Of a stretch of 64,000 nucleotides of DNA, positions 1,222 through 16,528 are shown piece by piece (position 1 is the stretch's first letter; every line of letters begins with the position of its first letter). Where the stretch lies: IMG/VR virus record IMGVR_UViG_3300009838_000020. One strand, written 5' to 3'. Below the pieces are notes generated by a model. It was given only the letters and a program-made list of their open reading frames with translations. It was not told the DNA's origin and ran no database searches. The position numbers were made by a program, and so were the translations under genes. This stretch comes from an uncultured virus (IMG/VR IMGVR_UViG_3300009838_000020). Its lineage: Duplodnaviria > Heunggongvirae > Uroviricota > Caudoviricetes.

Positions 1222-1226
1222 TTATC

Positions 1227-1838: not shown

Positions 1839-1839
1839 A

Positions 1840-2076: not shown

Positions 2077-2116
2077 CTTTTAATAAAAAATATATTGTAT
2101 TATTAATAATATTATT

Positions 2117-2124
2117 TATATTTG
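2117..2124 (+). promoter_or_regulatory. Bacteroidota -7 promoter element TATATTTG
   Basis: Intergenic, 25 nt before ATG 2150; the same 8-mer recurs at 312, 5463, 14289, 16439 and 59452. Confidence 0.65.
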
Positions 2125-2149
2125 TGTATAATTTAAAAAATGTAGTAAC

Positions 2150-2575: not shown

Positions 2576-3048
2576 GCAAAAAAATCTATTTAAGCGGTAA
2601 AATAACTGGTATTGAAGTTGAGGCAATTGACATTTTTGAAAATGCTGAAATACTACTTTCAACTATGGGCTACAAAGTCGTAAACCCGATGAAACTAAAT
2701 CACAACCACGACAAAGACTGGCACAGCTACATGAAGGTTGATATTAAGGAATTATGCGACTGTGACGAAATTTACATGCTTCAAAACTGGACAGACAGCA
2801 AAGGAGCTATTATCGAGCACACTATTGCTTTATGGCTGGGTCTAAAGATTATTTACGAGCCAAAACCCGAAGACGCTACGGTTATGATATTTGTAACGCT
2901 TGACGGAACTTTTGAAGTTGTAGAGTGCTGGAGGACTAAATATAAAGGCTATTCACATGGAGAAAGAGCTATGGCGGACGGTTTTGCTAGCTACGAAAAA
3001 GCGTCTGAGTTTTGTTTTAAAAGAAATTTAAAAGTAATTAAACAATGA
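2572..3048 (+). CDS. DUF4406-like (nucleoside 2-deoxyribosyltransferase-like) protein
   Basis: KIYLSGKITG...VVNP...L.DCDEIYMLQNWTDSKGAIIEH motif pattern. Confidence 0.75.
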   Translation: MSKKIYLSGKITGIEVEAIDIFENAEILLSTMGYKVVNPMKLNHNHDKDWHSYMKVDIKELCDCDEIYMLQNWTDSKGAIIEHTIALWLGLKIIYEPKPEDATVMIFVTLDGTFEVVECWRTKYKGYSHGERAMADGFASYEKASEFCFKRNLKVIKQ

Positions 3049-3494
3049 AAGATTTAAAAAAATTCACATCAAAAGAGGTTATTTTTTGCTCAAATTATTT
3101 GGAAGTTTTGGCAATTGCAAAGCAGATGCACGATGCAAAAATTAATTGGTACAACACCGAACCGTTTTTTTACCAAAACAATTTTAATGCAATCAATGTT
3201 GAGTTAATCAAGGAGCTAATTGATTCAAATGATTTTGTTTGGATACCGAAAAAAAACATGTACTACAGTTTAGCGAAAGCAAAAAATGCAGGTTGCTTTG
3301 TACACCTTGCTATCGACTATATTGACCCAGATGCCGACTACGAATTTGGCGGTTCTATTTCTCCAGAAGTTTATGTGTCAAAAAGCTATTATCCTAAAAA
3401 TTGGATTGGCGGACAGCGATTAAAAGGAACAATGGGCTATCTTAATTGGAAGTATGCGGTTTTGTCTCCATGCGAATTTGGTAATGTTTTGTAG
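3045..3494 (+). CDS. hypothetical protein
   Basis: 149 aa ORF, ATGA overlap with the upstream gene. Confidence 0.55.
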   Translation: MKDLKKFTSKEVIFCSNYLEVLAIAKQMHDAKINWYNTEPFFYQNNFNAINVELIKELIDSNDFVWIPKKNMYYSLAKAKNAGCFVHLAIDYIDPDADYEFGGSISPEVYVSKSYYPKNWIGGQRLKGTMGYLNWKYAVLSPCEFGNVL

Positions 3495-3549
3495 TTTTGT
3501 AGATTATGACTCAAAATTTAGTATTTTTGAGCTTTAATCCCTTATTATT

Positions 3550-3792
3550 ATGAACGCAAGTACGAAAAAAATAATTGTTTATTCATTTGTAGCATTAGCT
3601 TCTGGCGGAGTTATTTACTTTATTGCTAGCTTTTTTAAAAAGGATAGCATTACAGTCGGAAACACCACTGTAGAACTGGATTCCGAAGAAAAAGAAACTA
3701 TTCCTGCTCAGTTGCAAATTAAGAACAATTTTTTTGCAGACAAGTTAGCTGAAAGCCAAGAGACCATGAAAGAGTTGTGGTCATCTAAGTAA
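3550..3792 (+). CDS. small N-terminally anchored membrane protein
   Basis: KKIIVYSFVALASGGVIYFIASFFKK hydrophobic segment, similar in style to late-region membrane proteins. Confidence 0.6.
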   Translation: MNASTKKIIVYSFVALASGGVIYFIASFFKKDSITVGNTTVELDSEEKETIPAQLQIKNNFFADKLAESQETMKELWSSK

Positions 3793-3810
3793 GCTTTTTA
3801 ATTACTGATT

Positions 3811-3847
3811 TTTTTTAAAAGGGTGAAGCTTTTTGCCCTTTTAAAAA
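3811..3847. terminator. intrinsic terminator-like hairpin
   Basis: AAAAGGGT...GCCCTTTT stem flanked by T/A runs. Confidence 0.45.
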
Positions 3848-3890
3848 TTTTATTGCCTACAACCAAGCAAACACATAAATACAACAAACA

Positions 3891-4829
3891 ATGAAAAAAA
3901 ATTTTTCATTAAAGATTTTTAATCTACTTACCCGACGTGTTTTTCTAATTTCTAAAAAAAGAAAATATGGTTGGAGCTGGCAAGACTGCCAACGCTGGAC
4001 ATCTACATTTTTATTTCAAAAATACAAAGGACAAAAGCTATCTAAAATTAAAGTTACCCAAGTTGACCAAGTCATCAAAGACATGCTCGATAAGGGAATG
4101 GATGTTTTACCTGCAAAAAAACAAAAAGGTCAGAAAGCAGGTGCGGTTTCTTATGCAGGTCAGCCCAAACAGCTACAAAATTGTGCTAATGCCTTAGAGC
4201 TTACTCCAGCAGACTTATTTAGTGTAGAATGGTGGAATATTGCAAACAGCGAGGTTTGGTTTCGGTTTGAAGATAACTTACCAATGCGTGTTGCCTTCGA
4301 TAATGTGGTTGATACTGGTGTCGTTTTTAAAAAGGATTTGCCTGAAATGTTGGGTATTCGTGAGAGTTTAAGAAAAGCTTTAGGCGGTGAATACCCAGAT
4401 GTTGTGTTTAAGGTTCTTGTAAAACAAGGGTCAAAAGACGATGGGAAACCCTGCTCTTATTACGTTTTAGTAACCACAGAAAATAGCTCTTTTGATACCG
4501 ACAATCCAGAGGAAATAACAGCCTTAACTAGTATTGGTAGCCTTAGTCCCGAAAATATTGAAGAAAAACAGCGTCGTTTAGAGTTGCAAAAACAAAGAAG
4601 GGCTGAGAATGAATTGCTGGAAAAAGCCAAAAAGAGAGAGAGACCAAAACAAGTAGAGCCGAAACAAACCGAAGAAAAGAAAAAGCTACCAGTTGGTGTT
4701 TATAAGGAGCTTACAAAAATCCTTAAAATGCTAGAGCGTCAATATAAAGAGGGTATATTAACCAGAAAAGAATTTTTGAGTCGTCAACAAATTATTTTAG
4801 ATAAACTTGACAAAGGAGGTGTAATCTAA
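3891..4829 (+). CDS. hypothetical protein ending in LDKGGVI motif
   Basis: 312 aa ORF; C-terminal xxGG motif as in the late-region proteins. Confidence 0.6.
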   Translation: MKKNFSLKIFNLLTRRVFLISKKRKYGWSWQDCQRWTSTFLFQKYKGQKLSKIKVTQVDQVIKDMLDKGMDVLPAKKQKGQKAGAVSYAGQPKQLQNCANALELTPADLFSVEWWNIANSEVWFRFEDNLPMRVAFDNVVDTGVVFKKDLPEMLGIRESLRKALGGEYPDVVFKVLVKQGSKDDGKPCSYYVLVTTENSSFDTDNPEEITALTSIGSLSPENIEEKQRRLELQKQRRAENELLEKAKKRERPKQVEPKQTEEKKKLPVGVYKELTKILKMLERQYKEGILTRKEFLSRQQIILDKLDKGGVI

Positions 4830-4851
4830 CAACCAACTAACAAACAAACAA

Positions 4852-5397
4852 ATGGACAAACACATCGAACTTGCTAAAAAACTAAAACAGCTGGCAGACA
4901 AAGGTATTGGAGGCGAGAAAATTAATGCCGAGCAAATGCTTAACAACCTTTTAAAAAAACACAACCTTACTTTAGAGGACATCGAAGACGAGGTCAAACA
5001 AGACTTTTTTCTACAGTTCACAGACCCGTATCAATGGAAGCTTTTTAGTCAAATTACAGCGTTAATAGACCCAAATATTCCTAAATACGGTAAGTTTCCG
5101 CAAAATGTTATTAAAACACATCGTTTGAGAGGCAACTACATGATTACATGTACTGTGTCTCAATTTATTGAAATTCAAGCGATGCACGAATTTTATTTTA
5201 GGCTTTACATAAGCGAGCTTGATGTTTTTTACACTGGTTTTTTACACGCAAACAAGCTATTGTTGCCACCAGATGCCGACCAAAAGCCCGAAGACCTTTC
5301 AGACGAAGAGCTAGAAAAAGAGCTACGAATTCGCAAGCTATCACAAAGCATTCAAAGCGAGCAATTCCGCAAACAACTTGAACAGAACAACAACTAA
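4852..5397 (+). CDS. DUF2786-like protein
   Basis: N-terminal KKLKQLADKGIGGEKINAEQMLNNLLKKHNL pattern. Confidence 0.55.
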   Translation: MDKHIELAKKLKQLADKGIGGEKINAEQMLNNLLKKHNLTLEDIEDEVKQDFFLQFTDPYQWKLFSQITALIDPNIPKYGKFPQNVIKTHRLRGNYMITCTVSQFIEIQAMHEFYFRLYISELDVFYTGFLHANKLLLPPDADQKPEDLSDEELEKELRIRKLSQSIQSEQFRKQLEQNNN

Positions 5398-5512
5398 AAA
5401 AGCTTTTTTTGTGAGGACAAAAATAAAATACTAAAAATATTTTGTATTAATTAAAATATGTTTATATTTGTGTAGCAAACAACAAATCATTTTTAATTTA
5501 ATACTTTACATT

Positions 5513-5842
5513 ATGCACAAAGAAGTTAACCCAGTTGATGTTTTAGACTACTTTACACTAGAAACCATTGATGTTGTCAAACAAAAAGTTGCTGAAAAAA
5601 TTTTCAAAGATGTTCCCAAAAATCGTGTAGTTGAAGGTGCGGTTGCCTTTGCGGATGTTCCAATGAAAAACAACGCTCCAGTTAATCTTTTTTTTGAATA
5701 TAGGGCTATAGACAAAGAAAACAGTCTATGTATTATGGAGATTACTTGTATAATAATCTACACTGATATTCCAGATGTTGTTTTAGACAAGTATAATTTT
5801 CACAAAAAACAAGCAGAAAAATACAGAAACAATGAAAGTTAG
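5513..5842 (+). CDS. hypothetical protein
   Basis: ATG at 5513 follows the TATATTTG at 5463. Confidence 0.55.
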   Translation: MHKEVNPVDVLDYFTLETIDVVKQKVAEKIFKDVPKNRVVEGAVAFADVPMKNNAPVNLFFEYRAIDKENSLCIMEITCIIIYTDIPDVVLDKYNFHKKQAEKYRNNES

Positions 5843-6311
5843 AAAAATAGATTTCAGAAAAGAGCTGTCTCGGTTTGGATACAACTCAGGAAATGCAGTA
5901 GATGTAGATGTCTTAGTCAATCAAATTTTACCTAAAATTTATGAACGGGAGTTGATTATTATAATACAACTGAAAATGTTGTTGGAAATGGATGAGAAAA
6001 AAATCAAATGTCTGGAACTAAGTAGGATAAATGATAGAATAAATCATAGTGTAATGGACGCACTCAAAAAAAACACTATGGACTTTAGAGAAGAGCTGGC
6101 TATTTGGGGCTACAATGAAGGTAATTCGGTAGATGTAAAAATTTTACTAGACGAGATTTTACCTAAAATTTATGCTGAAATGTATGGAAAAGAAGATTTG
6201 AAGTCTTACGGAGAGTTTTGTGTAGCCAAATTTAACGACAAGAAAAAGGTTTCTTTAGTAGAAGAGTATTTTCAACAGTGGGTGAAACAATTTAAAAACA
6301 AACAACCATGA
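5832..6311 (+). CDS. hypothetical protein with an internal 31-aa duplication
   Basis: DFRKELSRFGYNSGNAVDVDVLVNQILPKIY and DFREELAIWGYNEGNSVDVKILLDEILPKIY. Confidence 0.6.
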   Translation: MKVRKIDFRKELSRFGYNSGNAVDVDVLVNQILPKIYERELIIIIQLKMLLEMDEKKIKCLELSRINDRINHSVMDALKKNTMDFREELAIWGYNEGNSVDVKILLDEILPKIYAEMYGKEDLKSYGEFCVAKFNDKKKVSLVEEYFQQWVKQFKNKQP

Positions 6312-6595
6312 CCATACATTATTTAAAAACAGCCCCAGAGTATTTTGAAAAATGCTGGCTACAAGAAAAAAAATTTGAAGTTCGTAAAAACGACCGAAAC
6401 TTTAAGTTGGGTGATTATGTCTGTTTAAAAGAATATGACTCACAAAAAAACTTGTTTACAGGGCGTAGGTTGATGACTGTTATAACTTATATTTTACAGA
6501 AATTTATAGCGTTAGACCCTTCTTATGTTGCTTTTTCTTTTAGAATTACTCAGCATATTGAAGGACTGCCTTATGAAAACACCATCAATGAATGA
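6308..6595 (+). CDS. DUF3850/ASCH-domain protein
   Basis: HYLKTAPEYF...KKFEVRKNDRNFKLGDYVCLKEYD...TGR...ITYI. Confidence 0.8.
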   Translation: MTIHYLKTAPEYFEKCWLQEKKFEVRKNDRNFKLGDYVCLKEYDSQKNLFTGRRLMTVITYILQKFIALDPSYVAFSFRITQHIEGLPYENTINE

Positions 6596-6669
6596 AATAT
6601 CATTCATAAAATTACAAAAACACAAATAAAACATTGTATATCATACGTTAACAACTAAAAACTAAAAAA

Positions 6670-6906
6670 ATGAAAAAAACAAAAATTCAAGAAAACTGGA
6701 AAATGATTAACGATGCCGAAAAAGCAGTTCAAGAACAAACTGGAGACCCAAAGGCAGGGTTTGTTGGTTCGTCTTTTTCTATGGAGGGCTTATATTTAGC
6801 AATCCCGTGCATACACAGTCATAAAACAGTGGAAAAGGGCGGAAGAAAATTGACAACAGGTGCAAAACAAACTTTAAATTTAACCCTAAACCCAGCTATT
6901 GTGTAG
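6670..6906 (+). CDS. hypothetical protein, probably truncated by the cassette array
   Basis: The last ~14 codons are the right half of a cassette site. Confidence 0.45.
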   Translation: MKKTKIQENWKMINDAEKAVQEQTGDPKAGFVGSSFSMEGLYLAIPCIHSHKTVEKGGRKLTTGAKQTLNLTLNPAIV

Positions 6907-6940
6907 CATATGTTACTGGCTGTGTTTTTAATTCACAACA

Positions 6941-7357
6941 ATGTATTTAGACCATAAAATTATTAGAGAATTTGAAGAATCAAATGGTTACAAAACTATT
7001 ATTGATAAAAATATCCAAATTGGTAAGTTTTTAGGATTTGAACCTGAAATTGAATGGATGGTAGGAACTGATGAAAGTTCTTGTTTTCATCCTAAATCTT
7101 GCGGATATAACGATACTGGAAGTCAAAAAGTAATTGCAGAAAAATGGCTTAATGAACAAAAAGAAAAATACCCAAATGGATGGGTTATAAAAGAAGGAAA
7201 TCAAGTTATAAAAAGAGAGTATTTTCCAAACTTTCATACTGATTGGAATCATTTAATGGAATGCGTGAAACGATTAAAACTACTAGGAATTGAAATAAAT
7301 ATATTTTCGGATAATATTTTTCAAACTTGGTATGAGGTTTCGCAACATAGCCAGTAA
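6941..7357 (+). CDS. cassette 1 hypothetical protein
   Basis: Flanked by GTTACTGGCTGTG (6912) and CATAGCCAGTAAC (7346-7358); the stop is the TAA of TAAC. Confidence 0.7.
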   Translation: MYLDHKIIREFEESNGYKTIIDKNIQIGKFLGFEPEIEWMVGTDESSCFHPKSCGYNDTGSQKVIAEKWLNEQKEKYPNGWVIKEGNQVIKREYFPNFHTDWNHLMECVKRLKLLGIEINIFSDNIFQTWYEVSQHSQ

Positions 7358-7481
7358 CGTCCGAGTGCTTGGCGAATAAGCGGTAAAAAATGCGTAAACT
7401 TTCAATTAAGCACCAAACTAACGAAGAAAAAACAAACTTTAAATTAATAACCGAACCCGCTTTTTTGCCAAACACTTGTTA
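7355..7481. repeat. attC-like hairpin site 1 (127 bp)
   Basis: TAAC-GTCCG-AGTGCTTGGCGAATAAGCGG...CCGCTTTTTTGCCAAACACT-T-GTTA. Confidence 0.8.
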
Positions 7482-7514
7482 TGTGAGGTTGTGGGTTTTT
7501 AAAACAAAATGTAA

Positions 7515-7691
7515 ATGAAAGAAACATTTGAAAGCTATTTGCAAAGATTAAAAGATAGACGAACCGAAGATAATTATAAATATACTGATGAAGATTTTGA
7601 AAAGTACAAAAATTACATACGTGATTGTTGGCTTACTAATTTAAGCGTTTACAAATGTTTGGAATTTATGTACTTTGAAATTCAATCGTAA
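7515..7691 (+). CDS. cassette 2 hypothetical protein (58 aa)
   Basis: MKETFESYLQRLKDRR...FEIQS*; flanked by GTTATGTGAGGTTGT / ACAATCTCACATAAC. Confidence 0.65.
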   Translation: MKETFESYLQRLKDRRTEDNYKYTDEDFEKYKNYIRDCWLTNLSVYKCLEFMYFEIQS

Positions 7692-7701
7692 CAATCTCAC
7701 A

Positions 7702-7827
7702 TAACGGTCTGGCGGTTGGCGACAGGCGGGATTTTGAAAAACTAAATTTGATACAAGATGAAAAGATTATTTGAAAAACTAAAGTTGATGTTTGCACGTC
7801 AGCCCCGCTTGCGCCAAACGTGTGTTA
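7702..7827. repeat. attC-like hairpin site 2 (126 bp)
   Basis: TAAC-GGTCTG-GCGGTTGGCGACAGGCGGG...CCCGCTTGCGCCAAACGT-GT-GTTA. Confidence 0.8.
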
Positions 7828-8060
7828 GTGGCTGTTGTTCTACCGAATTTGAACAACACTACAAACATTCTCATACAGATGCTATTGCTTTTGTAAGCAA
7901 GTTGCATCACAAAGATTTGTATGAAGTCCTTGACTTGGTAAGTGGTCAATGGATAAAACAGAACTACACTTACTTGGAAGATAATAATGAGCAGGAAACG
8001 ACACAAAAAATGTTACACGGTTTTCGTATGGGATGGTTGCGTCCTTACAATAGCCGATAA
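7758..8060 (+). CDS. cassette 3 hypothetical protein, starts inside the hairpin loop
   Basis: ATG lies in the site-2 loop, the frame reads through the GTTA box, and the stop is the TAA of TAAC. Confidence 0.65.
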   Translation: MKRLFEKLKLMFARQPRLRQTCVSGCCSTEFEQHYKHSHTDAIAFVSKLHHKDLYEVLDLVSGQWIKQNYTYLEDNNEQETTQKMLHGFRMGWLRPYNSR

Positions 8061-8184
8061 CGTTTCTCGGCTTTGCTTTGTTGCGGAAAAGTAAGCCAAA
8101 AACTTTGAATTAAAAACAAAAATAACAAATATAAACAGAACATTCAGTTATGCCCGAAACCGCAATAGAGCAAAACCGATGTTA
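8058..8184. repeat. attC-like hairpin site 3 (127 bp)
   Basis: TAAC-GTTTC-TCGGCTTTGCTTTGTTGCGG...CCGCAATAGAGCAAAACCGA-T-GTTA. Confidence 0.8.
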
Positions 8185-8197
8185 TAAGTAGCTTTTT

Positions 8198-8407
8198 ATG
8201 GAAGATATATTGATTGAATTTCAAATTTACCTTAATAACAAAAAACTAATTAATAATCACGATTGGGACTTTGAAAAAGAGGCTAAAAAATTTATAAAAC
8301 AAAGAGTTGTTAAACCTCAAAAATGTAAATGCAGAAAAGCAACTTTTACAAGAACTGTTGATGCTGATTTTAATTGTCTTTGTGGCAAATGTGGTCATCC
8401 GATATAG
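8198..8407 (+). CDS. cassette 4 small Cys-containing (zinc-ribbon-like) protein
   Basis: CKC...CGKCGH; flanked by GTTATAAGTAGCTTT / AAAGTTACTTATAAC. Confidence 0.6.
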   Translation: MEDILIEFQIYLNNKKLINNHDWDFEKEAKKFIKQRVVKPQKCKCRKATFTRTVDADFNCLCGKCGHPI

Positions 8408-8425
8408 TTCGTTTAAAGTTACTTA

Positions 8426-8551
8426 TAACGTTAAAGCATATATTTCAGTAGCGTAAAAGTAAACAACAAAGTAAAAATTAAACAATTAATAGCCAAACAC
8501 ACACTAACATTAAATTAAGCGTATAGTAGCTATTGAATATATGCAGTGTTA
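8426..8551. repeat. attC-like hairpin site 4 (126 bp)
   Basis: TAAC-GTTAAA-GCATATATTTCAGTAGC...GCTATTGAATATATGC-AGT-GTTA. Confidence 0.8.
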
Positions 8552-8578
8552 GTAGCTGTGTTTTTATCCACAAAAATT

Positions 8579-8896
8579 ATGAATACAAATGAATTTATTT
8601 TACCGATTATTTTAGTTTCTATTTTACTAATTATGATAGTAATAGGAAATATCAAAAAACGTGCTTTTCTGAAAGGTTATAAAAAAGCGGAATTTGATAT
8701 AACGTCAAGTATGTTAGATAATGCAACTTGGTTTGGAGGTAGACCTATATTTTACAATACACTTTATTTGTTTGCTGTTAAATACAGAAAATACGGATAC
8801 GTTTCTGCAAGCAGATTTCGTGATGATATTTTAGAAGTTGACCACGAAAAAAGAGTTACAGATTTACCTAAAGAAGAACTTGAACGTATTGTTTAG
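8579..8896 (+). CDS. cassette 5 membrane-anchored hypothetical protein
   Basis: N-terminal TM FILPIILVSILLIMIVIG; flanked by GTTAGTAGCTGTGTT / AACATAGCTACTAAC. Confidence 0.65.
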   Translation: MNTNEFILPIILVSILLIMIVIGNIKKRAFLKGYKKAEFDITSSMLDNATWFGGRPIFYNTLYLFAVKYRKYGYVSASRFRDDILEVDHEKRVTDLPKEELERIV

Positions 8897-8909
8897 GTAA
8901 CATAGCTAC

Positions 8910-9036
8910 TAACGGTTCGTGGCTTTGCTTAGTGGCTGAAAAGCAAGCCTAAATTATTGAATTAAAAACAAATTTTACAAACACAAAACAGTGTTTAAAT
9001 TTTGCCCGAAACAGCCATTGAGCAAAGCCACTGTTA
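8910..9036. repeat. attC-like hairpin site 5 (127 bp)
   Basis: TAAC-GGTTC-GTGGCTTTGCTTAGTGGCTG...CAGCCATTGAGCAAAGCCAC-T-GTTA. Confidence 0.8.
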
Positions 9037-9051
9037 TAACTTCGGCTTATT

Positions 9052-9354
9052 ATGGATAATTTAATGGAACAAGCAACAGGAATTTTACAAGTTTTATTGA
9101 AAGAAAAAGACTTTCAAGAATTTAAGGAATTAGATGAAAATTATAATTGCTATGAAAAGAAATCAGATACACCTGATGAACATAGAAAGCAAACAATTTC
9201 AAGATTAGAGTATTATATGAAGTTTATGTACAAAGATATGATGCAAGAAGCACCAATGTACTCAACTATGCTTTGTCAAAAAGTAATGGAACGATACGAT
9301 TATTATATGGCTAAATTTCTTGAAAAGCAATCTACGTCAAAAGCTGAGTTATAA
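9052..9354 (+). CDS. cassette 6 hypothetical protein
   Basis: Flanked by GTTATAACTTCGGCTT / AAGCTGAGTTATAAC; the stop is the TAA of TAAC. Confidence 0.65.
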   Translation: MDNLMEQATGILQVLLKEKDFQEFKELDENYNCYEKKSDTPDEHRKQTISRLEYYMKFMYKDMMQEAPMYSTMLCQKVMERYDYYMAKFLEKQSTSKAEL

Positions 9355-10040
9355 CGTGATAGCGGCTTGCCGAAGTGCGGGCAAAGGAAGCACGAACTTT
9401 CAATTAAGCACTAAAGTAAGGTTTTTATTTTTTTTGAGCGTTGGCAAATTGCTGACGATAGGAAGCAAAACAATAACATTTTAAAATTAAAATTATGAGT
9501 TACGATGAAAACAGAATTTCAGACCTGATAGATGGAGGTTTGAAACAACAGCAAGAAAGCATAAAAATTGATTATGCTCTTTATCGAAAAATTACAGATG
9601 AAATCCCTTTGATTAGATTTAACAATTTAAAAGATGCTAAAGAAGAATTTATAAAATCCTCTGACTATACAATGATAATTTGCGAGGTTTCAGAATTGAT
9701 AAATGGTAAAAGGATTATAATGCAAGAGCGAGTTTTAAAAGCACCTCAAATTTGGCTACCTGCCGATAGGTTTATTCCAGAATTTGACGATGATTTTTTA
9801 TGCTACTTAGTTCGTGAAGAAGAGTGCGGAAATATCGTAAAATGGCAAGAGGTATTGCGATTTGAAAAATTGGAATGGCAAAAAAGAAGCGATACTTGTG
9901 TAACACATTGGATGATTGTCGAAGACCCTATTTTGGGTGCAGATTTTAAAAAAGCGTTGGAGAAAAAAATAAAAACCGAGAAAGGAAGCACTAAAGATGA
10001 ATTTAGCACTTAACCCCGCATTTTGGCAAACTGCCTGTTA
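9352..10040. repeat. attC-like hairpin site 6, expanded by a gene inserted in its loop
   Basis: Arms GCGGCTTGCCGAAGTGCGGG (9362) and CCCGCATTTTGGCAAACTGC (10015) lie ~650 bp apart. Confidence 0.75.
9495..10013 (+). CDS. hypothetical protein (C-terminal DUF551-like W..A.R.IPE...VTHWM) nested in site 6
   Basis: 172 aa ORF lying mostly between AGCGTTGG direct repeats. Confidence 0.6.
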   Translation: MSYDENRISDLIDGGLKQQQESIKIDYALYRKITDEIPLIRFNNLKDAKEEFIKSSDYTMIICEVSELINGKRIIMQERVLKAPQIWLPADRFIPEFDDDFLCYLVREEECGNIVKWQEVLRFEKLEWQKRSDTCVTHWMIVEDPILGADFKKALEKKIKTEKGSTKDEFST

Positions 10041-10065
10041 TACGGTCGTTTTAATGCCGTATAAC
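10037..10065. repeat. empty cassette 7 (29 bp palindrome)
   Basis: GTTATACGGTCGTT-TT-AATGCCGTATAAC. Confidence 0.75.
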
Positions 10066-10186
10066 GTTTTGCAGATATACCCAGTTTGGGTTTAAATAGT
10101 AGAAACTTAAAATTAAGATAAAATGAATAAAAATGTAGAAGAATCAAGATTTAAACAGAACCCCAAATTGGGTATATCTGTTGTTA
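10062..10186. repeat. attC-like hairpin site 7 (125 bp)
   Basis: TAAC-GTTTT-GCAGATATACCCAGTTTGGG...CCCAAATTGGGTATATCTGT-T-GTTA. Confidence 0.8.
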
Positions 10187-10338
10187 TGCCACGTTTTTTA
10201 TTACGTCCATTTTACCTACTCTTAAAAAAAGATATGGTAAAGAGGTTAAGTGAAAAACATGGTGAGCAATTTATTGACGATGTTATGGAAACATTCGGAA
10301 TGCCAACAAATTTAATGGACAAATATTATAAAAAATAG
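10123..10338 (+). CDS. cassette 8 protein a, starts inside the hairpin loop
   Basis: ATG lies in the site-7 loop; the frame reads PKLGISVVMPRF through the arm and GTTA box. Confidence 0.6.
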   Translation: MNKNVEESRFKQNPKLGISVVMPRFLLRPFYLLLKKDMVKRLSEKHGEQFIDDVMETFGMPTNLMDKYYKK

Positions 10339-10342
10339 AAAT

Positions 10343-10531
10343 ATGCAAGTAAATACAAGTGAAGTAGTTGAATGTGGTAATAAATTGTATTACGACATTA
10401 ACCCAAATAGTAAAATGGATGTACCATCTATGTTCTATGTTAGGTTAGAAAAAGAGTGGGTAAAATGGAAAGAAAGTGGGAGTGAATTATCATTCTACGA
10501 TTTCTGTAAGTCGCAGTTAAATGTGGCATAA
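10343..10531 (+). CDS. cassette 8 protein b
   Basis: Stop is the TAA of AAATGTGGCATAAC. Confidence 0.6.
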   Translation: MQVNTSEVVECGNKLYYDINPNSKMDVPSMFYVRLEKEWVKWKESGSELSFYDFCKSQLNVA

Positions 10532-10655
10532 CGGCGGAGCATTGCCGAAGAAGCGAAAAAAATAAGCGAGTACTTTCGGTTTAAAAACCAAAATAACAGA
10601 TACAAAACCAATATCATAGTTTGCCTTAACTCGCTTTTTTGGCAATGCTATGTTA
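10529..10655. repeat. attC-like hairpin site 8 (127 bp)
   Basis: TAAC-GGCGG-AGCATTGCCGAAGAAGCGA...TCGCTTTTTTGGCAATGCT-AT-GTTA. Confidence 0.8.
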
Positions 10656-10670
10656 ACAGTAGCTTATATT

Positions 10671-11174
10671 ATGGCAAAAGTAATAACGTTTTCTCAAAAG
10701 TTTCCAAGCTATCATCCAAAAGCTGGACAACCTACATATTTTGTAGAAGCATTTTATAAATCATTATTCGTGATGAAATGTTTACCAAAAGAATTAGAAG
10801 AAAGTTTTAATCACGAAGTTTTTTTAAATGGAAAGACTAAACATCATACAGTTAGAAGTGGCAATAGATTTAAAAAAGGCGACTTTTTTAGTCCAAGAGT
10901 TTGGGGAACTGATGTAAATCCAAAAAGCGGTAAAAGTGGAGCTTACCACTCAAAGCAAATAATTTTATCTCACGATACTGAAATAAAGAATGTTTGGGAT
11001 ATTGAAATAAACGAAGCAACCGAAATTTCAATTAATGGAAAATTTATTTCTTATGGTTGGGAAGTAGAATTAGCAAATAATGACGGATTAAGTTGGCAAG
11101 AATTTAACGATTGGTTTTCAAAACTACCATTCAAAGGGCAAATAATCTGCTGGAACGATGAAGTTTCTTATTAA
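10671..11174 (+). CDS. cassette 9 ASCH/PUA-like phage protein
   Basis: K.HTVR.G.RFK.GD...LANNDGL...F..WF pattern; flanked by GTTAACAGTAGCTTA / TAAGTTACTGTTAAC. Confidence 0.55.
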   Translation: MAKVITFSQKFPSYHPKAGQPTYFVEAFYKSLFVMKCLPKELEESFNHEVFLNGKTKHHTVRSGNRFKKGDFFSPRVWGTDVNPKSGKSGAYHSKQIILSHDTEIKNVWDIEINEATEISINGKFISYGWEVELANNDGLSWQEFNDWFSKLPFKGQIICWNDEVSY

Positions 11175-11182
11175 GTTACTGT

Positions 11183-11308
11183 TAACGGCGGACGCTAACC
11201 GATGTTCAGGAAAAGTAAGGACTGAACTTTCGGATGATGACTAGACTTACAGACACAAAAAGACAATTGAATTAAACCAAAAGCCTGAATAGCGGTTAAC
11301 GTATGTTA
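11183..11308. repeat. attC-like hairpin site 9 (126 bp)
   Basis: TAAC-GGCGG-ACGCTAACCGATGTTCAGG...CCTGAATAGCGGTTAACGT-AT-GTTA. Confidence 0.8.
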
Positions 11309-11336
11309 TCACTTCGGCTTTTTATTCACAACTATT

Positions 11337-11570
11337 ATGAACGAAAAAGAATTGAAAAAAGAGCAGTTTATCGCAAAAGCGATGGAGAATAAAAAGAAAT
11401 TTGAAATACATAAAAGACTTATTGAAGAAAATTTATGTATTGGTGGCGAAATGTACATTAAAGATTTGAAAGTATTTGCCGAAAGACAAGTAGTAGATAA
11501 TCAATTACTTTTAAACTTAATGCAATATGCAGAAAGTTTTGCTAAAGAATATGCCGAATTGCAAAAATGA
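11337..11570 (+). CDS. cassette 10 protein a
   Basis: 77 aa ORF after GTTATCACTTCGGCTT. Confidence 0.6.
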   Translation: MNEKELKKEQFIAKAMENKKKFEIHKRLIEENLCIGGEMYIKDLKVFAERQVVDNQLLLNLMQYAESFAKEYAELQK

Positions 11571-11857
11571 GAACAAAAACAACATCAAAAATTTTTTCTG
11601 AAACGTCAGAAGAAACAAAAGAAAAAGTAAGAAATAATGCTAACAATTTAATAAACAAAAAAATGGTCACACAAAAAATGACAACACAAGAAAAAGCGTC
11701 AGAATTAGTGCAGGATTTAGGTTTAAATCACGCTATTTATGTTACTGAAGAAGTAATAACCATTCTTAAAGATTGGGATGGAACTGAATTAGCTCAAAAA
11801 GATTGGATTGAAATTAAAGAAATCATAGAAAGTATAGAACCAATAACCTTAAAATAA
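11567..11857 (+). CDS. cassette 10 protein b
   Basis: 96 aa ORF, ATGA overlap. Confidence 0.55.
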   Translation: MRTKTTSKIFSETSEETKEKVRNNANNLINKKMVTQKMTTQEKASELVQDLGLNHAIYVTEEVITILKDWDGTELAQKDWIEIKEIIESIEPITLK

Positions 11858-11864
11858 TAAAAAA

Positions 11865-12110
11865 ATGAACATTCAAGACGAAGTACAAAAAATCCATAAT
11901 CAATATGGAACAACCGAAATGGCAAACTATCAAATTGAAAAACTATTTGATAAAAAAATGAAAGAAGATAATCACACTCTTTTAGAAAAAATCAAAAACG
12001 GATTTGATGATATTTTTAAAAGTGAAAAACCACAATTAAAGGCTTTTGAAATTTATTATAATATTTATGGTAAATATCACCGCTTAGACCGTTCCAACGA
12101 AGCTGAGTGA
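11865..12110 (+). CDS. cassette 10 protein c
   Basis: Ends within AAGCTGAGTGATAAC (12100-12114). Confidence 0.6.
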   Translation: MNIQDEVQKIHNQYGTTEMANYQIEKLFDKKMKEDNHTLLEKIKNGFDDIFKSEKPQLKAFEIYYNIYGKYHRLDRSNEAE

Positions 12111-12137
12111 TAACTCGTAGATAACACTTACTAAATT

Positions 12138-12374
12138 ATGCAACTGCCTAAAAATAAAGTGATTACAAAGACTTTTAAAAACTACCCTTTTATAGTTTGT
12201 CTTAACGATGGCTTTTTGTATCAGTTGCAACATTGTCCGAGAAAAAGAACCAAATCTTTCAGAAAATTAACCTACAATTTTACTCGTAAAGCATATTATA
12301 TTAACGGGCGGTTGGTTTCTAAAGCAAGACTTACTAAATTAGCCTCACCAAAAAACAATAACAATGGCTTCTAA
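12138..12374 (+). CDS. small basic hypothetical protein right after the array
   Basis: 78 aa, K/R rich. Confidence 0.55.
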   Translation: MQLPKNKVITKTFKNYPFIVCLNDGFLYQLQHCPRKRTKSFRKLTYNFTRKAYYINGRLVSKARLTKLASPKNNNNGF

Positions 12375-13203
12375 ACAACTAATCGAAACACTAGGAATTG
12401 AAGACTACAAAAAGTCAATCTACAAATTTACCTCAGTAGATGCCGATATTAAAAAACTACAGGACACTGGAGAAGATTTTTACGTCAGACGTGGCTCGGA
12501 AGTGGTTGAAATTATCTATGACGGCGTACACTACTTATACAATTCCAAGTCAGGCAACTTTAATAAAAAAAGTATATTTTTATTCAAGCTAGTAAGCAGA
12601 GACGCAAGAGCTTTTATTGAAAAAAATCCGTTTATAAACATCCCAAAACACCAAGAAACCAAGCAATACAATGTATATTACGACGACAGTTATGGCAAAA
12701 TAGTCGGTACTGACCTAAACCACGCTTATTGGAGGCTTGCATACGTGAAAGGGTATATTACCAAAAAAACTTATGAAAATGGCTTAAAAGACAAGTGTAA
12801 GCAAGTTAGAAATGCTTCAATATCTGTGCTGGGAAGAACAAAAAGTTTTGAAAAATACATAAAGGGCAAAAAATTTAGCGATATTGAAACCCAAAAAGAA
12901 GACAAGTTGTTAAAGATTATTTTTAAAGACATTCGGCACACTTGCTTTGCAATTATGAATGAGATTGCTATTATGCTTGGTGATGATTTTGACTGCTACA
13001 AAACAGACTGTATTTATTACAGAGACACCCCAGAAAACAGAAAAATAGTTGAAACTTGTTTGGACACGTATAATCTTGTATACAAGCATCTAGTAGATAA
13101 CTCAATGGACTCTTTTGAAAAACTAGAAACACCAAAAACTTTAAAAAATGGAACAACAAAAAATAGTACAAATAGTAAAATCGATTCTGGAAACAAACGC
13201 TGA
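12364..13203 (+). CDS. minimal family-B DNA polymerase-like palm protein
   Basis: Motifs in order: GTDLNHAYW (A-like), KQVRNASISVLG (B-like), YKTDCIYY (C-like); no exonuclease domain. Confidence 0.5.
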   Translation: MASKQLIETLGIEDYKKSIYKFTSVDADIKKLQDTGEDFYVRRGSEVVEIIYDGVHYLYNSKSGNFNKKSIFLFKLVSRDARAFIEKNPFINIPKHQETKQYNVYYDDSYGKIVGTDLNHAYWRLAYVKGYITKKTYENGLKDKCKQVRNASISVLGRTKSFEKYIKGKKFSDIETQKEDKLLKIIFKDIRHTCFAIMNEIAIMLGDDFDCYKTDCIYYRDTPENRKIVETCLDTYNLVYKHLVDNSMDSFEKLETPKTLKNGTTKNSTNSKIDSGNKR

Positions 13204-13450
13204 GGCTAGGTCAGACAACAACAAGCTTTTCATGCTTTTCATATTTCACTATATCCACAAAGATGAAATCACAAACTTATCGGCTTATGAGTTTGTAAAT
13301 GCTGTATACTGGCACGACGCAATACCAAGCGTAGAAACGGTTGTTAGAACAGCCAGAAGAGTGAAGCAACAAAATCCAGAGCTAAGAGGTGTAAAAAAAA
13401 CCAATGTTGACCAAAAAAAGCCTATTTTTAGTGTCAAAAACAGAGATTAA
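13148..13450 (+). CDS. hypothetical phage protein
   Basis: ARSDNNKL...PSVETVVRTARRVKQQNPELRG pattern. Confidence 0.6.
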   Translation: MEQQKIVQIVKSILETNAEARSDNNKLFMLFIFHYIHKDEITNLSAYEFVNAVYWHDAIPSVETVVRTARRVKQQNPELRGVKKTNVDQKKPIFSVKNRD

Positions 13451-13546
13451 TGAAAAATAAAAAAGAAATTAAAGTGGAGATTTTAGCGTGGGTTTTTGTA
13501 CTGTTTATTGCTTTCTTGTTTTACAAAATTTACAAAAGCCACAATT

Positions 13547-13578
13547 AAAAAAAGAGCGGTTAACAACTCCGCTCTTTT
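13547..13578. terminator. bidirectional terminator hairpin
   Basis: AAAAGAGCGG-ttaacaact-CCGCTCTTTT. Confidence 0.7.
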
Positions 13579-13698
13579 ACCAAGAAACTTAAAAACACAT
13601 GGACAAGTGCTAATAATACCCAAATTTATATTTTAGCATCCAAATAAACTAAACCGTTGTTGCGGATAATCAAAAAAAAACGAAAAAAAATAATTTCG

Positions 13699-13986
13699 AT
13701 GTCTAAAATAAGATTCTACAAATATTATTTTTCTAACATAGACAAGCCAGTTATCATGGAAGCAGAGTCGAGAATAGATGCCGATGCCATGCTGGATACA
13801 CTGGGTCAAAAATCAAACTCCAATATTTCATTAGACCAAGTTATAGATGTTCGTATAGAAACACCTATTGTTGGTATTTCAAAAAGAAAGCGTCGGGGCG
13901 AAAACTATGTTTGGGTAGGCAAAGATTATAGTTCAGACGGCTGGCTACTTGAAAGCGAATTTAATAAAATTAACAAAAATGAATAG
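13699..13986 (+). CDS. hypothetical protein
   Basis: ATG 13699 (MSKIRFYK...). Confidence 0.55.
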   Translation: MSKIRFYKYYFSNIDKPVIMEAESRIDADAMLDTLGQKSNSNISLDQVIDVRIETPIVGISKRKRRGENYVWVGKDYSSDGWLLESEFNKINKNE

Positions 13987-14224
13987 AGACTTTTTTAATC
14001 TACAGAAACCAAAAAAAATATTTAGCCTACAACTTACAGAAACTCCAAGCGGTAAATTTCACCGATGCTTATTTCAAGGTATTCCAATTACAGAGGAAGA
14101 GCTTTTAAACAGAATACTTAAAGTCCAAAAAAAGAACGAACCAATATCAAAAATGGTACTTGATTACTCAAAACAAAACAGAATATTTAATTTGCGTATA
14201 AGACGCTTAAAATCAGTTTCATAG
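13949..14224 (+). CDS. hypothetical protein
   Basis: ORF; start probably at the internal Met (MNRDFF). Confidence 0.45.
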   Translation: MKANLIKLTKMNRDFFNLQKPKKIFSLQLTETPSGKFHRCLFQGIPITEEELLNRILKVQKKNEPISKMVLDYSKQNRIFNLRIRRLKSVS

Positions 14225-14324
14225 CTTCTTTTTTATTATTTTTAAAAATATTTCTTTTACAAATGTTTTGTATTTTAAAAAATATATTTATATTTGTGCT
14301 GTAACAACATTAAAAAGAACAAAA

Positions 14325-14723
14325 ATGGAAACTTATTTGTTGACAATTGAATTTAGATATGCAGACGCTCCTAACGCAAAACTAGACTCCACAGTAAGAG
14401 ACAAAATTATTACAATTGGAACTTATGACGACTTTGAACTCGCTTGTATTCATGGTAACAAAGCTCTCGAAACTCTTGAAAGCAGATTTGAACTACACCG
14501 ATTTCCTGACGGTAGTTTAGCTGAAAAATACCGATTCAGCACAAACGGAGGATGTTTTGGTGGTAAAAATAATTTAGTGACAAATTTAGCTTACCTAAAA
14601 ACTCCTTTTCATTTTTATGCCAAAATAACAACTCAAAAACATGGTGACATAAACGAAACTGTTGACGAGGTGCTTGCTTCCCTAAAAAGACACAAACAAT
14701 ATTTAACTGAAAACCAAGAATAA
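14325..14723 (+). CDS. hypothetical protein
   Basis: ATG follows the TATATTTG promoter at 14289. Confidence 0.6.
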   Translation: METYLLTIEFRYADAPNAKLDSTVRDKIITIGTYDDFELACIHGNKALETLESRFELHRFPDGSLAEKYRFSTNGGCFGGKNNLVTNLAYLKTPFHFYAKITTQKHGDINETVDEVLASLKRHKQYLTENQE

Positions 14724-14872
14724 AAAAAACCCTTATAAAAATGAAAACGATAATCACTTTAATTCTAGCAACAATAGGTTTGCTTTCAAAAACAACCGAG
14801 CTTTCAATAGCTTGCCTAATTCTTATTTTATTAATCATGGCTTACCAGCCAGCAAAAAAACAACTTTAAAAA

Positions 14873-15493
14873 ATGAAAACCTTTATTAAATTTTTAACAA
14901 TCTGCTTTTGTGCCTTAATAGCCCAAACAAGCAAAGCACAAGAAAAATTCAGCACTTATGACAACACTTATAGTGATAAAACATACGAAATTAAAGTGTT
15001 CTCGAAAGAAAAAGACAAATTTTCCCTATACATTGATGCCCTCTCATTAGATGCCACGTACGAAAAAGGTGGGATATACATGGATGAAAAACAGCACGAA
15101 ATTTTTTTAAACGCAATTACCGAAGCTAAGACAAAATATGCGGAGTGGGTAAAAACAGCAAAAGAAAATAATGTGAAAGAACTTCATAAATTAATAGCTG
15201 TCAAAAGCAAAGTTAGTGGCTATTTTATGTATGGTAGCAAATGGAATTTTCAGTTTACAGTAAATCTAAAATTTGAGTTTAAAATTTTAGAAAGTGTGGG
15301 AGAAACCAAATACTTACTGATAATAAGAACTGGTGAATTACAATCTTCGAGCAATCAGTTTATTAAAGTAGACGGTTTCGTTTTAGTGTTCGGGTCAGTG
15401 GCAGAAATTGAAGAATTTACCACCATAATATTAAAAGAAAAAGTTTTAGATTTTGTAAACGCACCAAAAAAAGAAGAGCTGTTTAAAGATTAA
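14873..15493 (+). CDS. exported protein with signal peptide
   Basis: MKTFIKFLTICFCALIAQTSKA|QEK, a Bacteroidota-style signal peptide followed by Gln. Confidence 0.65.
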   Translation: MKTFIKFLTICFCALIAQTSKAQEKFSTYDNTYSDKTYEIKVFSKEKDKFSLYIDALSLDATYEKGGIYMDEKQHEIFLNAITEAKTKYAEWVKTAKENNVKELHKLIAVKSKVSGYFMYGSKWNFQFTVNLKFEFKILESVGETKYLLIIRTGELQSSSNQFIKVDGFVLVFGSVAEIEEFTTIILKEKVLDFVNAPKKEELFKD

Positions 15494-15506
15494 AAAATGT
15501 AGTGCA

Positions 15507-15878
15507 ATGAAAAAAGATGTTCCAATAACAAGAAGTGAGTGGGAAGGTGTTTTAGAAAACATGACCAAGTTCAATAGAAATAGCGGGTATGTTGATTTTA
15601 TCGACTTCAATAACGGAAAGGTACAGCTTACTTTTTTTGACCACGACCCTAGAATAAACGGAATCAAAGCTCTTGCGGTAACAAGAACTTCTGTTATAGA
15701 GGCTATTTTAGCCTATCCAGAAACTAATATTGCCGAAAGTCAATTTGGAGTACACCAGAGCCATTGTTGCGAGCAAGAAGGCTGTAAATATGGTTGCAAA
15801 GACTGTCCAGTTGTTTTAAGAATTGTCAAACAAAAATACGCTTGTGAAGGCTGTGATTGCGGTTTCAAAAATTGTTAG
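15507..15878 (+). CDS. Cys-rich hypothetical phage protein
   Basis: GVHQSHCC...GCKYG...CPVV...Q.Y.CE.C. Confidence 0.6.
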   Translation: MKKDVPITRSEWEGVLENMTKFNRNSGYVDFIDFNNGKVQLTFFDHDPRINGIKALAVTRTSVIEAILAYPETNIAESQFGVHQSHCCEQEGCKYGCKDCPVVLRIVKQKYACEGCDCGFKNC

Positions 15879-15904
15879 TATATTTAACAAAAAACAACAA
15901 CAAC

Positions 15905-16426
15905 ATGAAAAAATTTATTCTTTTTATTTTTTTATTTTCATTATCCTTTTCGCATTCACAAATAAAAAAAGGTGAAAGTGTTTATGGGGCTATCAATATT
16001 AGCTCAGACCCTTATGCTATCTATAAAGAAGGTGGTATCAATATTTCTTTTGAATACGAAAAAGTTGAAAGACTAGCTTATGTTAAGGCTGGAGCTGAAT
16101 TTTTTCCTGTTTTAGATGGTGGTTATAACTTTTTTTACACTGGTGCTGGATTTAATTTAAAGATTGGTCATTTTGATAATTGGAGGCTGTTTTCTGGAGT
16201 TAAAGCTGGTGCTGTGCTTAGAGGCAGTCATAGCTATGGTAATTACGGAGGTGAGGCTGGTGTAAACTATATTTTTCCAAACGGTGCTATTCTAGGTCTA
16301 AAAACAGACGCTATTTATAGAAGTGATTTTTTATATTGGAATGGAGACCCCGAATTTGTAGGTAGTGGATATATCACTTTAGCGTTTAAAATAGATAAAA
16401 AAAGTAAGAGCCAGATTGTAAAATAA
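15905..16426 (+). CDS. putative outer-membrane beta-barrel protein
   Basis: Signal peptide, then alternating Gly/aromatic strands (YTGAGFNL, GGEAGVNY, GYITLAFKI). Confidence 0.6.
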   Translation: MKKFILFIFLFSLSFSHSQIKKGESVYGAINISSDPYAIYKEGGINISFEYEKVERLAYVKAGAEFFPVLDGGYNFFYTGAGFNLKIGHFDNWRLFSGVKAGAVLRGSHSYGNYGGEAGVNYIFPNGAILGLKTDAIYRSDFLYWNGDPEFVGSGYITLAFKIDKKSKSQIVK

Positions 16427-16500
16427 CTTTTAATACATTATATTTGTAGTGTATATTTTTCACATTGCCTGTGTTACTATTACAAAATGATGTTGCTTGT

Positions 16501-16528
16501 AAAACCCTCTCAAAAAGAGGGTTTTTTT
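16501..16528. terminator. bidirectional terminator at the strand switch
   Basis: AAAACCCTCT-caaaa-AGAGGGTTTTTTT between convergent gene blocks. Confidence 0.8.

Follow-up and report, generated by a model that had tools for sequence, protein, structure and literature searches.

Integrons are the textbook case of recombination through folded single-stranded DNA, and the choice of strand and the origin of cassettes have been studied almost solely with their integrase, IntI. Xer recombination of folded single-stranded phage DNA is known from CTX-type integration at dif. T4-type phages carry promoter-stem-loop cassettes, in which small accessory genes are bracketed by repeated stem-loops with expression signals at the points of shuffling, and homologous shuffling at such hairpin patches has been proposed for them. 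Here we describe an array of ten short cassettes and nine hairpins at positions 6855-12137 of a 64,000-nucleotide (nt) stretch of DNA from an uncultured virus of the Caudoviricetes (IMG/VR record IMGVR_UViG_3300009838_000020), the whole of which is referred to here as the window. Judged by comparison with related phage DNA, the array is probably a recombinase-less copy of an integron-like cassette array that is widespread in phages of Flavobacteriia, the main unit of which is a hairpin site together with a downstream cargo of 0 to 3 small genes.

Clusters of attC sites lacking integron-integrases (CALINs) have been reported from phages. Qi et al. 2023 (PMC9892861, in part) list a CALIN in Polaribacter phage P12002L, the sites of which were treated as classical attC and tested with IntI1; P12002L_attC1 is the one of the six sites without an IntI1-verified junction. 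This same site is a weak member of the hairpin family described here. In that article, the words Flavobacterium, Bacteroidetes and Xer have 0 occurrences each. A literature search that ended short of the supplements of bioRxiv preprints returned no account of these sites as a family, nor of the way in which they mark the strand or of their polarity.

Results

The window has a G+C content of 31-39% and consists of phage-like DNA, with a block of + strand genes at 317-16761 followed by - strand genes. Its DNA relatives in GenBank are Flavobacterium phages. It is probably part of a phage of ∼119 kb, since a viral contig of 118,934 bp, rated 100% complete, encodes a 97% identical copy of the cassette 1 protein (this contig contains the related locus L009 referred to below). 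The hairpin sites are too diverged for BLAST: a blastn search of GenBank phages with hairpin 3 gave no match, and with the L009 hairpin it gave three F. psychrophilum phages and none else. For this reason, pattern searches and a covariance model were used. About 100 IMG/VR contigs were retrieved by two left-arm patterns in the IUPAC (International Union of Pure and Applied Chemistry) code, both containing TAACG, and the covariance model was built from 14 aligned sites, with matches counted at E < 0.001. The model gave 432 matches in 99 related loci and, within the window, matched the array's own sites alone, every match being on the + strand. A script detector requiring exact TAAC and GTTA cores, with stem alignment and with orientation taken from the side of the bulge, gave 447 unique sites in the related loci; it also yields chance matches (for example, 23196-23276 of the window) and overlooks sites with long loops or weak stems. 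Members of the site family occur in Flavobacterium phages 11b, snusmum6 and FPSV-D15, and Polaribacter phage P12002L has a weak form of the same hairpin sites. The hairpins of the related loci fall into discrete length classes near 126, 118, 88 and 72 nt.

Between 6912 and 12114 of the window there are ten segments running from GTTA to TAAC, the cassettes, separated by nine elements running from TAAC to GTTA, the hairpins, of which eight are 125-127 nt long and the remaining one 689 nt. The count of 9 hairpins to 10 cassettes corrects an earlier picture of the array. In the list that follows, the first coordinate of each cassette is the start of the GTTA of its left box, and the TAAC of its right box starts at the first coordinate of the next hairpin or, for cassette 10, of the array end. 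Scores in bits are those of the covariance model.

6855..6915, + strand: half hairpin (loop end, right arm and TGTTA) before cassette 1; left half gone, open reading frame (ORF) 6670-6906 reads in
6912..7358, + strand: cassette 1, GTTACTGGCTG ... TAGCCAGTAAC; ORF 6941-7357, the stop codon of which is the TAA of TAAC
7355..7481, + strand: hairpin 1, 127 nt, TAACG...TGTTA, 119.6 bits
7478..7705, + strand: cassette 2; ORF 7515-7691
7702..7827, + strand: hairpin 2, 126 nt, 95.4 bits; an ATG in the loop opens ORF 7758-8060
7824..8061, + strand: cassette 3; two box mismatches at positions 5-6, ORF begins in hairpin 2
8058..8184, + strand: hairpin 3, 127 nt, 148 bits
8181..8429, + strand: cassette 4; ORF 8198-8407
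8426..8551, + strand: hairpin 4, 126 nt, 82.7 bits; weakest stem in the window
8548..8913, + strand: cassette 5; ORF 8546-8896
8910..9036, + strand: hairpin 5, 127 nt, 139.2 bits
9033..9355, + strand: cassette 6; ORF 9052-9354, extra T in left box
9352..10040, + strand: hairpin 6, 689 nt, normal arms, read from the sequence; ORF 9495-10013 (172 amino acids) within the loop
10037..10065, + strand: cassette 7, an empty 29-nt frame in which the left box directly abuts the right box; centre TCGTTTTAATG, extra T in left box
10062..10186, + strand: hairpin 7, 125 nt, 106.4 bits; ORF 10123-10338 begins in the loop
10183..10532, + strand: cassette 8; two ORFs, 10123-10338 and 10343-10531
10529..10655, + strand: hairpin 8, 127 nt, 120 bits
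10652..11186, + strand: cassette 9; ORF 10650-11174 (phrog_8581)
11183..11308, + strand: hairpin 9, 126 nt, 117.5 bits
11305..12114, + strand: cassette 10; ORFs 11337-11570, 11567-11857 and 11865-12110, extra T in left box
12111..12137, + strand: array end in an attI-like position, terminal TAAC-TCGTAGATAAC (T after TAAC); no hairpin and no recombinase gene next to it

Against L009, whose hairpin of 126 nt is complete, the half hairpin at 6855-6915 shows 94.7% identity over the right half, and the covariance model matches it weakly (6785-6927, 35 bits). The ORF reading into it, 6670-6906, corresponds to phrog_38446, and no left arm was seen upstream of it in 6596-6670. Together they may represent a second case of a gene within a loop, or a deletion. 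The first such case is hairpin 6, which the covariance model missed, as expected from its length of 689 nt. The stop codon of its ORF 9495-10013 lies at the usual loop-end place of the hairpin, and this looks like a gene that was inserted into, or captured by, the loop. The centre of the empty cassette 7, the 11-letter TCGTTTTAATG, also tops the short hairpin P12002L_attC1 (L141, ∼29996-30068, minus strand). The motif has 11 occurrences across all loci, none of them within the hairpins found by the script detector, and a near-identical empty frame is present in L127. No Pfam family was found for the cassette proteins of the window, and no recognisable function in its ten cassettes; two ORFs of the region have a PHROG match, both of unknown function. 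An Rfam scan of 6000-13000 gave four chance matches to microRNAs, all under the cut-offs.

Each cassette is bounded by two inverted boxes of 15 nt, GTTA-N6-G-N4 on the left and N4-T-N6-TAAC on the right. An earlier note on this DNA had claimed that position 11 is G against A in all ten cassettes when the left box is aligned with the reverse complement of the right, that cassettes 6, 7 and 10 have an extra T ahead of it, that positions 5-10 vary yet stay complementary outside cassette 3, and that cassettes 6 and 10 differ by a compensatory pair. The alignment bears this out: position 11 is G versus A in 10/10 cassettes, the extra T is present in the three cassettes named, positions 5-10 are varied and complementary in 9/10 with two mismatches in cassette 3 (GTTAGTGGCT versus GTTATCGGCT), and an A/C change is found on both sides between cassettes 6 and 10. 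The same note had made its case depend on conservation of the G·T pair in a larger set of sites, and there too it is retained, in 252/261 box-matched cassettes from ∼100 phage records, with a Watson-Crick pair in 0/261. These 261 are the cassettes with at least 5/6 complementary variable positions among 324 unique related ones, defined as those lying between two detected hairpins, compared with 4% for shuffled pairings of left and right boxes. In them, position 11 is G/A directly in 220 and, with the left box one base longer, in another 32; the remaining 9 differ and are mostly T/A. The right box has T at this position in 261/261. Positions 12-15 are variable and paired again, so that the G·T pair is embedded in a stem of 15 bp, at a distance of 10 nt from the TAA|C step. 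Complementarity of the boxes across each cassette, which in integrons is the signature of a circular intermediate, is seen in all ten cassettes of the window and in 261/324 of the related ones.

In the alignment of 14 hairpins, 17 of the 24 consensus pairs show compensatory changes. The site has the form 5'-TAACG, a 4-nt bulge, a covarying stem of ∼20 bp, an A-rich loop of ∼60 nt and TGTTA-3'. A G·U pair adjoins the core in 14/14 aligned sites; TAAC is always followed by G and GTTA always preceded by T, which adds another G·T pair that never varies on the + strand. The four extra bases on the 5' arm right after TAACG are the sole constant extra bases. Among 199 sites of the main length class, there are fixed non-Watson-Crick places at stem position 5 (C·A, 72%) and position 14 (G·T, 78%), and at the variable positions 11 and 12 G·T or T·G pairs make up 23-27% compared with 0-2% for C·A or A·C. 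The inner arms had also been described as rich in + strand G·T pairs, and at stem positions flanked by Watson-Crick pairs those of the window have G·T 11 and T·G 3 versus C·A 3 and A·C 0. Family-wide, the corresponding sums are 701 for G·T plus T·G versus 282 for C·A plus A·C. Folding with DNA parameters favours the + strand, which is the more stable in 254/259 rebuilt circle sites by a mean of 4.2 kcal/mol; circles rebuilt with the upstream or the downstream hairpin are indistinguishable in folding energy (-25.4 versus -25.5 kcal/mol). A G follows TAAC on the + strand in 366 of the high-scoring sites, and on integron bottom strands the base behind the AAC of R' is likewise a conserved G (PMC2727003, in part). 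The proposal that the + (coding) strand is the folded substrate thus gains support from the wobble excess, the stability of the fold, the conserved G and a crossover at the 5' foot of the + strand hairpin, the place at which IntI cuts its folded strand. It is still an indirect case, because folding of the + strand as RNA would give the same picture, wobble bias included.

The gene with which a hairpin travels was read from its flanks in related loci. The earlier note would also have been refuted by hairpins that stay with the gene upstream, and the related loci show the opposite tendency. Hairpins at least 85% identical in different loci have the same downstream box in 187/437 pairs and the same upstream box in 11/437, and at 97% identity or more the downstream box is shared in 14/21 pairs and the upstream box in 0/21. 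In 59 clusters comprising 210 hairpins there are 207 distinct upstream boxes versus 146 distinct downstream boxes. Clusters sharing only the downstream flank contain a hairpin pair at least 80% identical in 13/24 cases, and those sharing only the upstream flank in 1/27. Of the 11 pairs of whole-cassette homologues, 5 keep only the upstream hairpin, none only the downstream one, 3 both (plain duplicates in two cases) and 3 neither. Among homologous blocks of at least 150 nt and at least 90% identity, 51/190 distinct starts coincide with the T of TAAC or precede it by one base and none falls on the G of GTTA, and 38/198 ends are at TAAC +2 to +8. In blocks of at least 90 nt, 225 starts lie at TAAC, 14 at GTTA and 58 inside hairpins.

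Individual comparisons agree with these counts. Phage snusmum6 and a relative have blocks that are 99% identical in shuffled order, with four edges at TAAC(G) and the array end at TAAC; the other edges lie 17 nt inside the next left arm, after the left box and at the end of the left arm (one each). Cassette 1 and L009 are 94.7% identical from 6855 to exactly 7358, the C of TAAC, and L009 has a complete hairpin ahead of cassette 1 and none after it. Relatives of hairpin 3 match from 8057/8058 onward, and those of hairpin 9 from exactly 11183 through the left box. Contigs from other samples diverge from the window at 11187, 7708 and 12114, each just past a TAAC; these contigs, assembled from the mixed communities of four samples, give divergence points and two joints, are no proof of excision and carry no information on the stretches that they leave uncovered. 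In 54/57 arrays the last cassette is boxed and has no hairpin after it, TAAC there being usually followed by T. At the other end, 20/53 first cassettes have no detected hairpin ahead of the left box; most of these 20 are preceded by T and right-arm-like sequence that the detector overlooked.

The hairpins also appear to be tied to the genes behind them through expression. An ATG in the upstream hairpin opens an ORF running at least 40 codons into the cassette in 109/318 cassettes, and in snusmum6 the methylase domain is preceded by no further in-frame start, whether ATG, GTG or TTG. A gene moved without the hairpin ahead of it would thus often lose its start, which is consistent with hairpin plus downstream gene as the unit. 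The longest ORF lies on the hairpin + strand in 309/318 cassettes. No convincing match to a Bacteroidetes-type promoter was found in the loop consensus on either strand. The claim that the mobile unit is the hairpin plus its downstream gene therefore stands for the main unit, on the grounds of linkage and block edges, and does not stand for the sole unit, given a second boundary at or after GTTA. The crossover proposed at TAA|C can be placed within TAACG by the block edges, and not at a single phosphodiester, because these five letters are invariant.

The second boundary is seen in several places. Together with its left box and leader, hairpin 9 is found again ahead of other genes in six contigs. 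In contigs from other samples, 11324 is joined to 12089 and 7508 to 7684, both boxes of cassettes 10 and 2 being retained and the cargo absent or different; others diverge at 7483, where the GTTA of hairpin 1 has just ended. For these frames (11305-11324 with 12089-12114, and 7478-7508 with 7684-7705), relatives with the same hairpin and boxes have cargos of other lengths (∼225 and ∼290 nt, compared with 810 nt here). Since blocks end at or after GTTA and 3/11 homologue pairs keep neither hairpin, either a second exchange point or replacement of the cargo is indicated, and it is likely that both occur, as a rarer exchange at the other core and as replacement of cargo within a constant frame. 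For the former there would be a precedent, by analogy, in the R'/R'' choice of integrons, the sites of which recombine at R' or R'', according to the strand delivered, when they have no extrahelical bases (PMC2727003, in part).

A Pfam scan of 150 of the 154 ORFs of 230-520 amino acids from the fetched loci revealed eight tyrosine recombinases of 265-276 amino acids in array-linked loci. All eight have PF00589, and seven also have an N-terminal SAM-like domain (PF13495 or PF02899), the one in L026 having PF00589 alone. They form one family with 47-94% identity and RKHRH-Y catalytic residues, and the invariant columns include the arginine of RVSE, HxxR and the final Y. The best-scoring model is XerA (183.9 bits, cut-off 220), no curated model reaches its cut-off, and the integron integrase model TIGR02249 scores 137.5 bits (cut-off 265) split in two stretches. 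The family enzyme has the domains of the Xer type, SAM-like N-terminal plus catalytic, with R-K-H-R-H-Y residues; the window does not encode it. The recombinase gene starts 43-52 nt past the terminal TAAC in 8/8 loci (52 nt in six), always on the cassette strand and with no hairpins beyond it, and the spacer between them begins TAYTATAT or TCCTATAT in 7/8. Read from the recombinase end, there is an attI-like primary site followed by cassette body and hairpin, repeated; the recombinase points away from the array and the cassette genes point toward the recombinase end. This layout equals that of an integron with the genes alone turned, and the + strand here corresponds to the integron bottom strand. 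The polarity opposite to that of canonical integrons which had been predicted thus applies to the orientation of the genes and not to the recombination machinery, which has the integron order when read from the recombinase end. ORF 12364-13203, just past the array in the window, was considered as a diverged recombinase and is unrelated to the enzyme of the family. Locus L027 has two facing arrays on opposite strands, with 4 and 7 hairpins and a recombinase gene after only one of them. Among the recognisable proteins of the scanned array loci L024-L127, DNA methyltransferases (N6_N4, D12 and C5 classes) are the commonest by a wide margin.

Elsewhere in the window there is a tRNA-Met gene at 161-233 on the minus strand. 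Minus-strand ORFs at 20122-22835 (cytidylyltransferase-like, APS-kinase-like and sulfotransferase) are part of a sugar and sulfur modification set, the rest of which lies at 59541-64000 (minus; glycosyltransferases, methyltransferase, acetyltransferase-like, aminotransferase and RgpF-like). Two further minus-strand genes encode a 1227-amino-acid polyvalent protein with NUDIX and ART-PolyVal domains (55462-59145) and a 575-amino-acid protein with DUF2958 and a Zeta-toxin-like kinase domain (46405-48132).

Discussion

We propose that a small tyrosine recombinase of the Xer-like kind, which this phage would receive in trans, acts on the folded + (coding) strand by single-strand exchange within the TAACG at the 5' foot of the hairpin. 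Hairpin, left box, cargo and right box would leave and enter as one circle, in which the stem gains 15 bp from pairing between the right and left boxes. The fixed G·T, 10 nt from TAA|C and put forward in the earlier note as a putative recognition determinant, would lie at the outer edge of a putative 11-bp recombinase arm, and the 6 nt C-G-NNNN may form a one-sided central region. The hairpin loop would provide expression signals, often including the start codon, to the gene behind it. The array of the window is laid out as a CALIN-like store that needs its enzyme in trans. More tentatively, and with somewhat more doubt than assurance, it is possible that phages of Flavobacteriia have a folded-single-strand cassette system of their own, with an Xer-like enzyme and independent of IntI, in which every cassette has its site ahead of the gene, as swap site and expression leader in one, the strand is marked by three wobble pairs that are fixed, and frames recur around different cargos or even empty, as in cassette 7 of the window.

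Several observations weigh against the mechanism proposed. The whole case is comparative. For the hairpin alone the preference for the + strand falls to 198/259 sites and just 1.3 kcal/mol, and stem position 5 is, in 72% of sites, a C·A mismatch on the + strand. On the - strand, the fixed marks could just as well be taken for A·C mismatches, and the wobble bias and the gene-fixed orientation (309/318) are also expected from RNA folding. The downstream box goes with the hairpin in only part of the pairs (43% overall, and 67% at hairpin identities of at least 97%), neither hairpin is kept in 3/11 cassette homologue pairs, and blocks of at least 90 nt end 135 times at GTTA and 188 times at 10-35 nt beyond it, compared with 31 times at TAAC. 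The two boxes flanking one hairpin are complementary at 2.13/6 positions versus 2.08/6 when shuffled; the 15-bp outer stem can thus form only in the circle, or by pairing across a whole cassette. The fetch patterns preselected TAACG at one site per locus and the script detector is blind to cores other than TAAC and GTTA, which means that the invariance of the core was not independently measured; phage 11b has one site with a TAAG core. Finally, no tyrosine recombinase (PF00589) was found among the 105 ORFs of the 64-kb window, nor any PF00589 protein in the 119-kb relative (the whole contig of L009), phage 11b or snusmum6. In these four the enzyme must therefore come from elsewhere.

The alternative that survives best, although we consider it unlikely, is that the G·T bias arises from folding of the hairpins, and of the box stems round each gene, in the + strand transcript, where G·U pairs are tolerated, for processing, termination, stability or control of translation, in which case exchange of DNA need not use the + strand at all. 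Wobble pairs are typical of transcribed structures, the hairpins are oriented with the genes (9/9 in the window, in addition to the 309/318 of the family), the loops hold the start codons of 109/318 cassettes and a conserved A-rich stretch, and T runs follow the left box. A role in RNA leaves unexplained why homology has sharp edges at TAAC, why cassettes are shuffled between phages that are 99% identical, why a recombinase gene lies 43-52 nt from the terminal TAAC in 8/8 loci, and why three wobble positions are fixed and not just tolerated. RNA folding and recombination of the folded + strand are mutually compatible, not exclusive.

Folding of the - strand is considerably less probable. The three invariants would then be A·C mismatches serving as unpaired marks, like the extrahelical bases of attC; the 4-nt bulge would fall on the 3' arm, which is the arm with extra bases in integron attC (PMC2727003, in part), and stem position 5, a mismatch on +, would become a wobble on -. 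However, IntI-like cleavage of the 5' arm would put the crossover at GTTA, where the long blocks never start, and the hairpins show no linkage to the upstream box. On +, wobble pairs reach 23-27% at stem positions 11 and 12 against 0-2% for C·A/A·C, the - strand is the less stable in 254/259 sites, and on it TAAC is followed by A and not by G.

A similarly low probability attaches to exchange without any site-specific enzyme, in which the hairpins would be mere patches of homology for gene shuffling by Erf or RecT. Erf or RecT genes are present in these phages, hairpin interiors do contain some of the block edges (58 starts and 28 ends among blocks of at least 90 nt), and most arrays have no recombinase gene in the available DNA, eight loci having one among the 150/154 ORFs scanned. 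Homologous exchange gives no reason for a pile-up at a 5-nt core (225 starts at TAAC versus 58 inside hairpins), would neither make nor keep the complementarity of the boxes (261/324 versus 4%), and does not explain a tyrosine recombinase at a near-fixed distance from the array end. That the hairpin belongs to the gene in front, with crossover at G|TTA, is scarcely credible: hairpin-sized blocks often end at GTTA (135 ends) and contigs diverge at 7483, just past the GTTA of hairpin 1, yet near-identical hairpins share the upstream box in 11/437 pairs, 0 homologue pairs keep the downstream hairpin alone, 54/57 arrays have no hairpin after the last cassette and many genes would lose their start codon, so that canonical polarity is contradicted as the main mode and may be a minor one.

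If a recombinase does act on the folded + strand, a second enzyme family would appear to use the integron trick in phages, with different marks (a bulge on the cleaved arm and a fixed G·T). The genes would be reversed, each cassette thereby bringing start signals of its own. This would account for the trading of accessory genes, such as DNA methylases, among phages of Flavobacteriia. If frames are truly refilled, the system would also reveal how new cassettes arise, the main open question of integron biology. The sites, at ∼155 nt, are simple to test.

Of the systems known, the promoter-stem-loop cassettes of T4-type phages resemble the array in their small genes and their stem-loops with expression signals; unlike it, they have no box complementarity across a cassette, no fixed core and no dedicated recombinase. 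The CTX/dif Xer system is like the mechanism proposed here in having an Xer-family enzyme, a hairpin of one strand of phage DNA with an asymmetric unpaired central region, and a single-strand exchange that is completed by replication. It integrates a whole phage genome at chromosomal dif, whereas here single genes would move within phage genomes and by a recombinase family of their own.

CALINs, including those of phages (Qi et al. 2023; PMC9892861, in part), are likewise recombinase-less arrays of sites in phages of the virulent type, and DNA methylases are a frequent cargo in relatives. By layout alone the array belongs with them, having nine hairpins in 6855-12137 and no tyrosine recombinase within 64 kb; its sites are not classical attC. 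With integrons (PMC2727003, in part) it has in common cassette arrays with imperfect palindromes, AAC...GTT cores and pairing that is kept while the sequence varies; a conserved G after the AAC of the folded strand and an unpaired spacer beside the core; cassette ends that pair in the circle only, with the recombinase gene beside a terminal primary site; and a site on the far side of the cassette body when read from that primary site. It differs in its enzyme, which is Xer-like with 265-276 amino acids and not an IntI with its extra domain, and in its paired box, which has 15 nt with a fixed G·T and not 7 nt. The extra bases form a 4-nt bulge on the cleaved arm, not extrahelical bases on the opposite arm; the site precedes the gene, often holding its start codon, where an integron site follows a promoterless ORF; and the host is a phage. 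The phage system would be a natural comparison for the essentials of strand choice in recombination through folded DNA.

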